Shown here one piece after another: positions 12,765 to 64,000 of a stretch of 64,000 nt of DNA. The first letter of the stretch is position 1. Every line of letters starts with the position of its first letter. Both the position numbers and the translations under genes were made by a program. Under the pieces are notes generated by a model, which was given only the letters and a program-made list of their open reading frames with translations, had not been told where the DNA came from and did not search any database. The stretch comes from Eledone cirrhosa (lineage: Eukaryota): positions 15,252,001 through 15,316,000 of the forward strand of contig OZ024751.1 in NCBI GenBank assembly GCA_964016885.1, given 5' to 3'.

Positions 12765-12904
12765 GATGAAAGTTGGTTGATCAAATAATCTACCGACATT
12801 TTCGTAAACAGCTGTAAAGCACTCAACGATTTGTATTCCTTTGGATTTTCTGTAAGGTATCAACCGGAGTTTTAATATAATAAATAAGAGAGACGGTTTT
12901 ATCA
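12765..12904 (-). mobile_element. short TA-inserted element, 3' end of the hammerhead-element class
   Basis: (TA)n on both sides; minus strand ACTCCGG...TTGAGTGCT motif shared with 15710-15750 and 54912-54963. Confidence 0.55.
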
Positions 12905-13920
12905 TATATATATATATATATCGTCATTGGGGCAGACGGCTAAAAGAAGCCGGAGTATGTAGTATGCTTGTTGTGTCAGTGAGTGTAGAAGGTGATGAAA
13001 GAAAGGAAGAAAGATCTGTGATGCTTCAAAGAACTAAAACATACCAACAGATTGTTCCTGTTGCAATAAGTCTTGATGGTGACGTGCTCAGCTGCAATGC
13101 TTAGCAACTTTTGATGTAGCTAATCTTGTACATCCTCCCACACAGAACACCACACTGCACTACATCCACCTTACACCTCCCCCCGTTCTCTCTCTCTCTC
13201 TCTATATATATATATATATCTAAACTATAATAATATATATAATATATTTAAATAGTTCTCTCTTTTTTACCACCACTATATTTACTCTACATTATTCTCA
13301 TAAAATAATCTTTCACTACTTATATATTATAATGCAATACACATTGTAAATTTAGACAGCCGGTATGTATTAAGTGGCTATATACTTTAAACTGTTCATC
13401 TAGTAGATCTCCCTCTCTCTCTATATACGTACGTATATACACAATATATATATATATTATATGTGCGTGAATATATTTCCTGACGAGGAACTGAGTGGAT
13501 ACAAATATTTAAACTCTACATCTGTGTATGTATTGAATACTTTATTAAAAAATGGTCTTAGTTTAATAACTGAGAATTACACCCCCCCCCTTCTTGAGAG
13601 AGAGTGTATGTATGTGTGGGTATGTTAGTGTCTATATTTATTACCTCTGTGTTAGTCCATTCTCTCAACCACCACCACGTCTCGTCAGCATTCTCACACA
13701 AAGGTAAACATTTCCACCACACACCTCATTAACGCAGGCTCTCAGACACATATACTTCCTAGTGTGACCCACAAACATCCACATTATGCCTTATGACATA
13801 CAGAGTAGATGGAGGTTGTCCAGCTGCGATTTCTTTCACGCTTTGACTTCAATATCTACCTCCCACTCTGCGCGCGCGCGCACACACACTCACGCGCACA
13901 CACACATTATATATATATAT

Positions 13921-14116
13921 AATAGAAATGATTTCTACAGGACTAGAACTGTTTCATTCGTAAGAAATCATCAGGACTTTCCTGTTGATTTCTTACAAAT
14001 GAAACAGCTCTAGTCCTGTAGAAGTCATTTCAATTATAAAATGAATATGCCTATACTCTTCTAGCGTAATGAGTACCTTGTTTAACAGTGGTTTCCTCAC
14101 GATTTTCATCGGGATT
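13921..14116 (+). mobile_element. TA-inserted fold-back element with hammerhead motif in each arm
   Basis: Inverted arms ~13922-13976 / ~13980-14034; + arm GACTTTC-CTGTTGA-stemII-GAAA-CAG..CTG-TA-GAAGTC; - arm retains CTGATGA. Confidence 0.7.
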
Positions 14117-14303
14117 ATATATATGTATATATATATGGGTCTGGAAACGTTGATAAATTATGAACGTGAGAACTCTTTGATTCGAATGAACGGAATTGTT
14201 TAGGTCTTAAAAATGAAACATGAAAGTAGTCGTGTTTTCAACAACATATGTATAAAAGAAGGGCTGTTCTCCATACTGCTATATATATATATATATATAT
14301 ATA

Positions 14304-14433
14304 TAACGAAGGAATTGTGGTAAGGAACCAGATGGACCATAACGCACCAAAGTACTCAATACTTAGGGTAGTAGAGTGGGTAATAGGAACAAGTATGACC
14401 CCAACGGCAGAGCTCAAGCCATTTCGACGGCTA
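14304..14433 (-). mobile_element. copy of the 15240-15369 element (3' half of hammerhead plus tail)
   Basis: Reverse-complement match to 15241-15369 with scattered substitutions; abuts (TA)n. Confidence 0.8.
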
Positions 14434-14459
14434 TTTCACACACCTATCTATATATAGAT

Positions 14460-14828
14460 ATATTTCTTTATTTACCATAAAGGCATAAAAAGAAGGGACA
14501 AATACAAAGGGGGCGTTTACATACAATTGAGTAAAAAGGGTATAAAATGAAAATAATCGAAAATAACCTCAAAAGGGAGGGGACGTGATGGGGGTTGCAC
14601 ACACCCCCGAAAAAGTGTGCAATCCTTTGCTCCGGGAGCACATGGAGAAGGTGCTCCCCTCTCCTTTACTTCTTTACCTACAGGATGGTATACAGAGAAG
14701 GCCCATTTACACGAGCCATTCTCGCCACTATCACCCACCTTTCATAAAACTGCCTGTGGCCAAGCACCTCTCTCTCCATTCTTATCCTTCTTCCGAAGTG
14801 ATATCGGAAGAAGTAGACCAGACTTTAT
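14460..14828 (-). mobile_element. 3' end of Tx1/L1-clade LINE in TA/GATA microsatellite
   Basis: Minus strand LVYFFRYHFGRRIRMEREVLGHRQFYERWVIVARMARVNG...*, pyrimidine-rich 3' UTR ending AATAAAGAAA. Confidence 0.65.
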
Positions 14829-60779: not shown

Positions 60780-61145
60780 AGGTAGTGGTGGAGAGACTAG
60801 TGTACTAATCAGTTATTAGTGGATAGATATAGGGAGTATTGGTAGTGATGGTGGTGGTGGGGAGACTAGTATATTCATCTGTTATTAGTTGATAGATATA
60901 GGGAGCATTGGTCGTGGTGGGGGCGACTAGTGTACTAATCAGTTACTATTAGATAGATATAGGAAGTATTGGTGGTGGGGAGACTAGTGTACTAATCAGT
61001 TACTATTAGATAGATGTAAGAAGTATTGGTAGGGAGTAAAGTACTAATCAGTTATTAGTAGAAAGATATAAGAAGTATTTGTGAGGGTAGTGTACTAATC
61101 AGTTACTAGTGGATAGATATAAGAAGTGTTAGTGAGGGTCAGTGT
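60780..61145 (+). repeat. imperfect ~52-75-bp tandem repeat
   Basis: GTACTAATCAGTTA...GATAGATATA.GAAGTATTGGT recurring six times. Confidence 0.8.
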
Positions 61146-62171
61146 AGTAATAATTTTATTTAAGAAACTTAAAATTATGTTTCAACCAGCTAAATAATGA
61201 CAAAGTTAGTTATATTATTAAATCCTTCCAAATTTCTGATTAATTTCAAAATTATTTCAAAACCATAGGCATTCTTTCATTAGAAATACAGTAAATAGTG
61301 TTAACATAACAGGGTGTAAGTAAGTCAACTTTAATCTTGCTCTATTGACCTGGTCTTGTTGTATGACATTAGTAGGTTCTATTTAAGTTACTACTTGGTG
61401 GAAAGCTTGCTATATTTTATTTTTACATTACAATGTAGGATATGACCTTCTTCATTCTGGGTTGTCATATTTATACTGACTAGTTAGTAAATACAATAGC
61501 AGAACCTGGCTTACTGTCAATTGGAAGTAATCCAATACTTTATTAGCGCATATTGGTATTGTTTATGACAAATGTTTGTTTAGGAATAATTCTCATCGAA
61601 TCTGAGAAAGATGTGTCATATATTCCATTATATATAGTCTAATATCTCACTTCCCATGATCTTTATTGGTAAATTACAGATTACAGATAAAGAATGTCTG
61701 TGTCAGGGTCTCAGTATGTGTCTGTGTCAGTATGTGTGTGCATGTCAGTATGTCAGTGTGTGTGAATATGTGTTAATGTGTCAGTGTGTGTGTGTGTCTC
61801 AGTGAATGTTCTTAATAAATTCTGCTCTCTAGCTAGCTGTAATTAGCTGTCACATGGACAGCTACTTCTTACTGGACAACATTAGAAAGAACTTCACATA
61901 GAAACATTTAAAGAATTTAACCTGAAAATCCCCTTTAGAGACATCACTGTTTGACCTAATTACTGAGGAAAGTCTCTTAATATATTAACAGAAATTCTTC
62001 TCATAATCTGTCTAACCTAATAAATATTGGCAAGAGAATGTCCTATATATCCTCCTATAAAATATATAGTTAATTGTGTTGTATACATTATTATGAAAAG
62101 AAACTGCAACATAAACAAGAACAACATTCACAATAAAATAAATCCTGGGCAATGAATATTATCTGTTTTAA

Positions 62172-62372
62172 TCCTTTAGCATTTAAACCAGACATATTCG
62201 GCCTGAATTCTCTCACCTCTTTCTGTTCAAACTGGCCAGAACCAGCTGCTCATACTTATATTAAGGTATTGTTCTCAAAATAAATAATATCAAATTCTCA
62301 TGGATTCGATATTATGTGAGATAAAGCCTTTACCACAAAAATACAATAGTATATATAGTGTAATGTAAATAG
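62172..62372 (-). mobile_element. piggyBac-type MITE, reverse copy
   Basis: TTAA-TCCTTTAGCATTTAAACCAG..., reverse complement of the 19872 family. Confidence 0.8.
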
Positions 62373-63423
62373 GAAATCCATTGTTTAGTATGAATATAGG
62401 GTCTAACTAGAATCTTCCTACTGTTAATTAGAAAATATTTCTTCACCAACCACATACAACAAACAAACTGCTCAATAAAACCAGTGTAAAAGCTATAGTT
62501 GCCTGTCTGCCTGATGATGTGAAGAAAACAGGAAATGTGATATATGTGGATGTCGTCTTCTTTTGAAAGCTGGCTATATTAATCACATGAAATCATACTT
62601 TTATACTCAGAAAAAACAGTTTACTGATACCGATACTTTTTCCATGCCTAAAAAATACTACTTGCGAATTGTGCAGTGAAGTGTGTAAGTCAAAAACTGG
62701 ACTGCAAAGACATATGCACAAGAATGTCATTCAACAGACATAACTAATCCATTCCTTAGAGTTTTGCCTGTCATATTATTGACTGTAGACCAGTCATGAG
62801 CAAACTGCAGTTCATGGGACGTGCTGTCCCACATTTGACTTTCTAAATGGCACGCCTAATGAAAAATTACCTTGAATTATTTTAGTAGTGTTGCTCACCT
62901 TATGATGTGCCATATCTCATGCAGTCCACTGCTCAAAAAGGTTGCTAATGCATGCTCTATACCATGTAAATCATCAGCTGGTCTTAAGAGTCATCTCGGT
63001 GCACATGTACATACAACAGTAAGGTTTAACTGAACAATTAAAAATGAGACAGCTGTCATCTGACAAGATGAAGTAATCATCATCATTATCATGTGTGTGT
63101 GTGTGTGTGTGTGTGTATTCTGATGTGGTCCATACATACTTGACTATTTGCATTAATGTTTTGTGAAGAAACAGCATAAATTTGTGCATATGTTGAATAA
63201 AAAAAACTGGAAGTCTGCAAAGAAAGATAAATAATTTTAACCCTACAAAGATATATATATATATATATATATATATATATATATATATATATATATATAT
63301 GCAAAGGTTTTATTTAAAATTGTTGGGTTACAAGTAAATATTTACTACCCAGACAGCTTCCTAATTTAATGGTCGCTTATAATATGGTACGTCAAAATTA
63401 TTTATAAAACTGTTTATATATTG

Positions 63424-63489
63424 TATTTTATCTGACGAAGGCATGCCATATTTTTAATATGGTATCCCTGAAATATGTATAATGAAATA
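63424..63489 (+). ncRNA. minimal type I hammerhead ribozyme in TA-flanked element 63301-63530
   Basis: TATTTTAT-CTGACGA-AGGCATGCCATATT(TTT)AATATGGTATCCCT-GAAA-TATGTAT-A-ATGAAATA; stems III and I resemble 15453-15515 while stem II differs. Confidence 0.87.
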
Positions 63490-64000
63490 AATATGGTTTT
63501 ATAAATATAGTTTCCATTTGGTTAATATTGTATATATATATATATATATATATATATATATATATATATATATAATCTTTTAATGACCCCTTTCCCTGCT
63601 AGCAAGATATATGTATTTGTGTATTTATGTATGTGTGCATGTATGTTTTATATGTAGATTTATGTATGTATGTGCATATGCATATATATATATATATTTA
63701 TGTATGTGTGTATGTTTTATATGTAGGTTTATTAATATATGTATGTAAATTAACATGAAATCACATACACATATATGCATGTATATACGTATGCATGCAT
63801 GCACACACACACACACACACACACACACACACACACACACACACACATGTACATGTATGTTTAAATGGGCACGTGTATTTTATCATTGCTGATCAAGTTT
63901 CATGTGAAGCTGAAACTAAAATAACAGACTTGATTAAATATTCACGCTTCAAATTACTCTAAATGACTGCAGAAAGATGTTAACCTAATCTGTAGGTATT

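Follow-up and report, generated by a model that had tools for sequence, protein, structure and literature searches.

The 64,000-nucleotide window analysed here (Eledone cirrhosa assembly GCA_964016885.1, contig OZ024751.1, positions 15,252,001 to 15,316,000, forward strand) contains short islands, mostly bordered by (TA)n, that carry hammerhead ribozyme motifs. An earlier sequence-only reading had described them as non-coding, retrozyme-like retroelements that depend on Penelope proteins. In this study, we found from sequence comparison that the islands of families A-D are leader or pseudo-long terminal repeat (pseudo-LTR) pieces of Penelope-like elements of 3.3-4.1 kb, which bear an open reading frame (ORF) with Hydra-clade motifs. 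The genomic patterns described below favour, with some reserve, the view that the islands are pieces of autonomous Hydra-type elements and by-products of twin priming at two internal sites of the RNA. The hammerhead motifs in this genome are real, abundant and of a known kind.

Families A (L031), B (L091 and L092) and D (L183) form units of 3.6-4.1 kb in the order hammerhead, tail, ORF, 3' untranslated region (UTR) and hammerhead. For family C (L097-L099), at least 3.3 kb of ORF and 3' UTR terminate in a hammerhead. A protein search of the genome returned 152 scored matches, and in several of them the frame is open over 800-896 codons. The intact 892-aa ORF of L337 (family A) carries RWK, DKT, YRDD, CxCX5C, YIG (787), CxxC and CxH, and is without CX2-5CxxC. 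Among 84 aligned proteins, RW[KR] was present in 77, DK[TS] in 82, CxCx4-6C in 79 and DKG in none, and the family D protein carries RLRWR and HSDKT. The structure of L337 predicted from the 84-row alignment had a predicted local distance difference test (pLDDT) score of 81, and its top match in the PDB was TERT (3du5, E 3.6e-9). The reverse transcriptase was not recognised in Pfam RVT_1 or PDB sequence searches. The GIY-YIG domain (Pfam PF01541) was matched by the L031 piece alone, under the curated cut-off (E 7e-4), and by none of the 11 remaining pieces. Inspection of the L337 endonuclease by eye, made without a reference alignment, found no CCHH. The homologs found were unnamed, apart from one coral protein.

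Hydra elements with hammerheads and (TA)n targeting have been published, including the octopus family Hydra-1_Obim of Octopus bimaculoides (PMC8557442). As in that clade (Craig et al. 2021), the parent elements have a C-terminal GIY-YIG, RWK, DKT, a CxCX5C linker, CxxC and CxH. The hammerhead in the pseudo-LTR, the (TA)n target, and the tandem and inverted layout are also all present, with family D carrying a variant core. However, the units are longer than the Hydra-clade tendency (generally <3 kb) because of long 3' UTRs and a low-complexity insert, and they occur here in tens of thousands of copies. The Hydra-1_Obim hammerhead in the supplement of that paper differs from those of families A-E when compared by eye. 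The sequence-only reading had proposed a search for full-length copies with a Penelope reverse transcriptase and GIY-YIG, and families A-D do run into such autonomous elements. Its statement that the islands hold no ORF is right for the islands themselves, and no Penelope ORF was found anywhere in the 64-kb window, but it does not apply to families A-D, which are the ends of ORF-bearing elements.

The 3' ends of the arms were bimodal and sharp in families A, B, C and D, at two sites 80-100 nt apart. The two sites accounted for 23 and 27 of 61 arms in A, 23 and 15 of 44 in B, 15 and 15 of 30 in C, and 42 and 58 of 134 in D. Arms with the long end comprise the pseudo-LTR and 75-100 nt of the leader that precedes the start codon in tandem copies; tails of 30-40 bp are described for other clades (PMC8557442). 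Each 3' end sits 0-6 nt before an inverted motif, RCTC-N9-31-GAG[TC] (RCTC...GAGY). In A, B, D and a C-related family, a copy of the motif follows each of the two ends. A fifth family (L287) has it after the long end, and there L105 ends 5 nt before it; for C, E and cluster 4 it was seen after the short end. The first copy is closed by A-U and the second by G-C in A, B, the C relative and family K, and the second copy of family D is degenerate. No second copy was seen in the (TA)n-ended arms of these families, which is expected if the signal lies 3' of the start on the RNA. Both 3' ends fall on TA steps.

Head-to-head islands usually joined one arm of each kind. Among 148 such pairs, 119 were long plus short, 1 was long plus long, 3 were short plus short, and 25 were unclassifiable or tandem; long plus short thus made up 119 of the 123 classifiable pairs (67 of 70 in a smaller, earlier set). 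A tail on only one of two inverted repeats was the subject of an earlier qualitative remark (PMC3846280). The arm junctions were distinct in 43 of 46 cases in D, 11 of 11 in A, 4 of 4 in B and 5 of 5 in C, and many held extra or missing bases instead of a clean hairpin. Since the junctions differ from copy to copy, the short islands look like fresh by-products and not like copies of a short master. Long-ended arms extended into the ORF in 4 of 28 cases in A, 1 of 20 in B, 0 of 12 in C and 6 of 69 in D, while the 7 tandem junctions seen had no more than 510 nt of sequence upstream of them, which hints at a template jump or a circle.

The 5' ends were also clustered. They lay within 6 nt of one place in 97 of 187 arms of D and 62 of 83 arms of E, and looser clusters were found in C (9 of 32) and, at 55-68 nt, in B (16 of 51). 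The cluster of A lies about 122 nt ahead of the hammerhead core. TATAAAT stands 30-31 nt upstream of the cluster (counted by hand) in E, B and a B relative. An initiator-like TCACT is also present, as described for rotifer pseudo-LTRs (PMC3846280). In contigs of sequencing run X1, possibly the source sample, depth, which is qualitative here and not a copy number, rose about 5-fold at the A cluster and fell about 270-fold between the bins that flank the long end.

The regular long-plus-short layout suggests that two reverse transcriptases, each beginning at one of two marked sites on the same RNA, likely produced each island. The element protein would cleave a (TA)n target on both strands, and reverse transcription would be primed at two internal sites of one RNA, both presumably marked by RCTC...GAGY. 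With the 5' cluster as the putative transcription start within the pseudo-LTR, most cDNAs would run off the 5' end of the transcript after 60-320 nt and then be joined head to head. A minority would continue through the 3' UTR and ORF, via a template jump or a tandem or circular RNA, to give full elements. The hammerhead would ride along uncleaved in the short products. A more specific version, which we put forward tentatively and at somewhat under even odds, holds that the duplicated motif sets the two starts and that a dimer uses the two cut strands to prime both. The run-off cDNA would resemble a strong-stop product that either jumps to complete an element or is sealed as a hairpin stub. 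If this is true, one model covers the tail, the head-to-head repeats and the solo pseudo-LTRs. Family D would have switched its 3-8 pair repeatedly between U3-A8 and C3-A8 while spreading.

Several points weigh against this reading. The 5' cluster of family A is broad (15 of 60 arms) and lacks a TATA box, the box of D has one mismatch, and that of C is ambiguous. The signature of a cap, an untemplated G, was sought at the 5' ends of D and none was seen. The motif stem has just 4 pairs, with an energy of -3.5 to -3.7 kcal/mol and a z of about -0.8 where it is the predicted fold, and the first copy is not the predicted fold in A or B; the motif may therefore act as sequence or as DNA. Eight stretches were folded, of which four (two from L168, L107:2255, and the E stretch, which took another fold) were mis-aimed or uninformative. 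The loci were drawn from exact-match lists, mostly on contig C1, with the long pairs picked by hand, and many arm extents are bounded by indels in the reference. In addition, no parent ORF was found for family E, although its anatomy matches that of A-D, so family E may be non-autonomous. Two candidates for an E parent were set aside: a Neptune-like ORF in L281, which is a separate nested insertion, and a Hydra-like endonuclease remnant beside E in L301, for which no link could be made. The L281 insertion (3556-4512, minus strand) is itself a Penelope-like element with a Neptune-like linker and its own minimal hammerhead in a TA run, and Penelope-like elements of other clades also lie in TA runs at L062, L100 and L017.

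The same parents could also give these islands by single priming, if the cDNA folds back on itself at palindromes and its second strand is then trimmed by the endonuclease at the short site. That site would in this case be a DNA cut mark and not an RNA start mark. Self-priming has been put forward from palindromic junctions (PMC3846280), the tail has been ascribed to endonuclease resolution (PMC8557442), and it is required for recognition by the D. virilis endonuclease (as cited in PMC11167929). The A cluster does sit on an AT palindrome, long-plus-short pairs are also predicted by fold-back, and the TA steps at both ends agree with it. However, among the 101 pairs measured, 14 had a short arm that exceeded the long arm by more than 100 nt (the reverse in 7), and copying of the long cDNA therefore cannot account for every short arm. 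In several of these pairs (L035, L030, L099, L292, L189 and L125) the arm lengths sum to the gap. Together with the many junctions that are not clean hairpins, this makes fold-back an unlikely source of the islands. A less probable alternative concerns the 5' clusters, which might be stall or microhomology sites of ordinary 5' truncation on a full-length template and not transcript starts. The D cluster lies in the long stem II hairpin, the palindrome under the A cluster is able to anneal to (TA)n, and the missing cap signature in D fits as well. Such stalling would leave unexplained why B and E carry a TATA box at the expected distance and why TCACT is shared with rotifer pseudo-LTRs, and the E cluster precedes the hammerhead instead of lying in a stem.

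The least probable reading, to which we give little credence, is that the short units, at least those of E and D, are retrozymes in their own right, non-autonomous and spreading as small self-cleaved circles with the help of a Penelope protein. D and E are mostly short, E is numerous (41,522 matches) without a parent ORF having been found, and animal retrozymes have been proposed to derive from pseudo-LTRs (bioRxiv 10.64898/2026.07.22.740005). Against this, the short D units are without half of the catalytic core and the junctions are heterogeneous. Close same-strand pairs (L023, L029, L133 and L282) were separate insertions divided by (TA)n or other simple repeats, and no head-to-tail arrays were seen among them. 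Furthermore, 5' ends were not enriched at the hammerhead cleavage site, with 0 of 59 there in A, 0 of 35 in B, 1 of 21 in C and about 2 of 67 in D. With coding parents for A-D and junctions that vary between copies, the earlier proposal of a stand-alone non-autonomous system was not borne out.

Family D bears on the role of the ribozyme. Its core pattern had 5,519 exact matches in the genome. A hand count of the first 100 listed gave 65 with U3-A8, having all four letters at position 7, and 35 with C3-A8, 30 of them with G7; G8 was found in 0 of 100. U3-A8 also occurs in other clusters of this genome and is a published variant with about 1,300 matches in Schistosoma (PMC4209133). A lone change at the 3-8 pair abolishes cleavage in the Anolis element PAc (PMC11167929), and the C3-A8 hammerhead of D is therefore likely to be inactive. 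As a speculation, G7 might rescue it by pairing with C3 in a shifted register. In a tree of 52 long D arms with the core removed (265 columns, unrooted, and possibly affected by recombination), supported branches imply no fewer than 3 changes of the 3-8 state, and paired arms are usually sisters. The D lineage offers a natural test of the ribozyme's importance for spread. In the old family F insertion, the arms (29421-29648) read CTGATGA and TTGATAA at the core, so that C3-G8 and U3-A8 stand in one insertion; this mixture may be decay. No relative of family F was found in 1.5 Mb of loci.

We also examined the hammerhead motifs of the window against controls. A type I descriptor with stems I and II of at least 3 pairs and stem III of at least 1 matched exactly the four motifs that had been called complete (Table 1); the 200 block shuffles averaged 0.045 matches and never reached 4. 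With stems I and II of at least 4 pairs there were 0 matches, because stem II is mispaired at the fourth pair. A second descriptor, which had no bulge option and missed families B and C, gave 8 matches in 214 kb (the window and 15 stretches chosen by place) and 0 in 30 shuffles. The four complete motifs exceed what chance would give. Stem I had at least 4 pairs in 18 of 21 distinct matches selected on core letters alone. A relaxed descriptor gave 258 motifs in 34 clusters from 1.09 Mb of mostly match-selected loci, and several of the singleton clusters are probably chance. The predicted minimum-energy structure of D and E was not a hammerhead fold. In an Rfam search of the window, no hammerhead was among the best 150 of 324 matches at E<=5; apart from SNORA11, those listed were to microRNAs in simple repeats and were rejected. 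The SNORA11 match (55085-55213), barely above the gathering score, is probably an artefact of the family A hairpin junction.

Most of the partial motifs are decayed or cut hammerheads of additional families. Those listed at 13975 (E), 24018 (decayed J), 29421 (F), and 54366 and 55603 (G) were read as hammerheads. At 14304 and 15249 (D) only 3' halves that begin inside stem II are present, without the CUGANGA half, and 12765 (H) belongs to a dispersed repeat and is degenerate and cut at its 5' side. The candidate at 34600 has no core and a single weak relative (E 8e-5), and was not confirmed. The TA flanks were confirmed: 234 of 269 arms had (TA)4 at the 3' end, compared with 5.8% of random windows. 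High copy number, many families, the Penelope link, TA landing pads and a palindromic stem III (in A, B, C and G) also held.

The 2.996-Gb assembly was then searched for families A-E, with each inverted pair contributing two matches. There were 7,824 matches for A (up to 2 mismatches), 3,775 for B and 2,932 for C (up to 3 mismatches each), 35,311 for the D tail (up to 2) and 41,522 for E (up to 1), with 0 in every control. A core pattern of one stem-III class, common to A-C and their relatives, was matched exactly 80,543 times, and its reversed control 199 times. Families F, G, H, I and J lie outside these counts. One E copy recurs with its flanks at seven or more places on contig C1 (L251-L254, L256, L261 and L264); it spread inside a larger duplicated unit, and such duplications inflate the counts. 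Contigs labelled as two other organisms (sequencing runs X4 and X6) hold 12 and 1 pieces of family A-like sequence, which may be relatives or contamination.

The minimal type I hammerheads of Cervera and de la Pena (2014, PMC4209133) resemble those described here in their short palindromic stem III, the U3-A8 variant, the predominance of single motifs of truncated elements, and opposite-strand pairs 100-700 bp apart. In contrast, Eledone has a whole amplified C3-A8 lineage, most D copies begin inside stem II, and the counts are far higher. The Anolis Poseidon element PAc, studied in vitro (Frangieh et al. 2024, PMC11167929), is like the twin-priming model in its two internal starts that bound the tail. 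It has an AT-rich target and both strands are cut, and hammerhead mutants leave insertion unaffected. Unlike here, PAc belongs to the Poseidon clade and its start sites are in an AC-rich stem-loop inside the ORF; the sections consulted mention neither a duplicated motif nor a rule of pairing nor stubs left by run-off. Non-LTR retrozymes (Cervera and de la Pena 2020, PMC7229834; bioRxiv 10.64898/2026.07.22.740005; see also PMC2377424) are likewise short, non-coding and Penelope-related with a type I hammerhead, and up to 120,000 hammerhead motifs are given for axolotl in that literature. However, they are head-to-tail arrays of 150-450 bp that give circles, whereas the units here are single or head-to-head and have ORF-bearing parents. 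Bulk hammerhead counts in such genomes need not mean retrozymes. For Octopus vulgaris, 31 recently active Penelope-like families are annotated, with ribozymes unmentioned in the accessible part of the text (PMC13282606).

We found no description of the duplicated motif, the pairing count or the run-off stubs in the literature searched, in which subscription journals were thinly covered. Within that literature, the two sharp 3' ends with RCTC...GAGY, the near-constant long-plus-short pairing, the 5' ends that in two families lie about 30 nt downstream of a TATA box, and the U3-A8/C3-A8 core of the amplified family D were not found. The origin of Penelope-like tails and inverted repeats is an open question (PMC8557442, PMC3846280, PMC11167929), and this genome makes it directly testable: it offers an intact protein, short and mutable candidate signals, and integration products by the tens of thousands.

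Table 1. Hammerhead-related features of the window, by family (positions within the window)
Feature	Position	Strand	Remarks
Family A long arm: pseudo-LTR with hammerhead 55019-55073 and ~97-nt tail, to long terminus	54874..55180	-	99% to L032 leader
Family A short arm with hammerhead 55296-55350, to short terminus before (TA)n	55181..55399	+	
First RCTC...GAGY motif, family A tail, directly after short terminus	54922..54963	-	Read by eye; the predicted fold is an alternative local pairing
Family B short arm with hammerhead 15453-15515	15409..15565	-	Parents L091, L092, L094
Family B long arm; hammerhead 5' half deleted; tail motif 15710-15739	15570..15798	+	
Family C long arm, tail piece only	63301..63343	-	
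Family C short arm with hammerhead 63424-63489	63344..63530	+	Parents L097-L099
Family D lone long arm: variant hammerhead 3' half (GAAA, stem III, GUC) and tail	14306..14437	-	Parents L183-L186
Family D short arm	15179..15237	-	
Family D long arm, begins inside stem II	15241..15368	+	
Family E short arm, hammerhead with canonical core at 13974	13922..13976	-	
Family E long arm with tail	13979..14117	+	
Family F: old head-to-head pair, arms ~80% alike	29421..29648	.	Core 29564(-)
Family G arm, minimal hammerhead, core 54397	54278..54460	-	Relatives with palindromic stem III
G-related arm, core 55634	55430..55653	-	
Family H: 5'-cut, degenerate hammerhead-like arm flanked by (TA)n runs	12764..12903	+	Relatives in L249, L114, L255
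Family J: decayed hammerhead remnant	24016..24061	-	87-96% to intact-core copies in several loci

The window also contains other repeats. A LINE (long interspersed nuclear element)-type reverse transcriptase with an inserted PHD finger lies at 52150-53859 on the plus strand (RVT_1 E 1.9e-30, PHD 3.3e-5). A 91% inverted copy of its 3' part is found at 3770-4475 (3789-4475 on the minus strand), and a fragment at 46158-46985 (minus strand) looks related by eye, with no Pfam match. Other LINE-type fragments are located at 34738-35310 and 5854-7460 (both plus strand) and at 14460-14830, the last of which matches a repeat whose minus strand codes in L045. A 32-bp tandem satellite of about 115 units with strong GC skew occupies 47255-51200. 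Small elements with terminal inverted repeats, resembling miniature inverted-repeat transposable elements, lie between TA runs at 12646-12729 and 18076-18166. A dispersed repeat of about 190 nt, similar to a short interspersed nuclear element, occurs at 186-377, 5132-5658, 44645-44820, 45458-45647 and other places, and is also inserted in L183.

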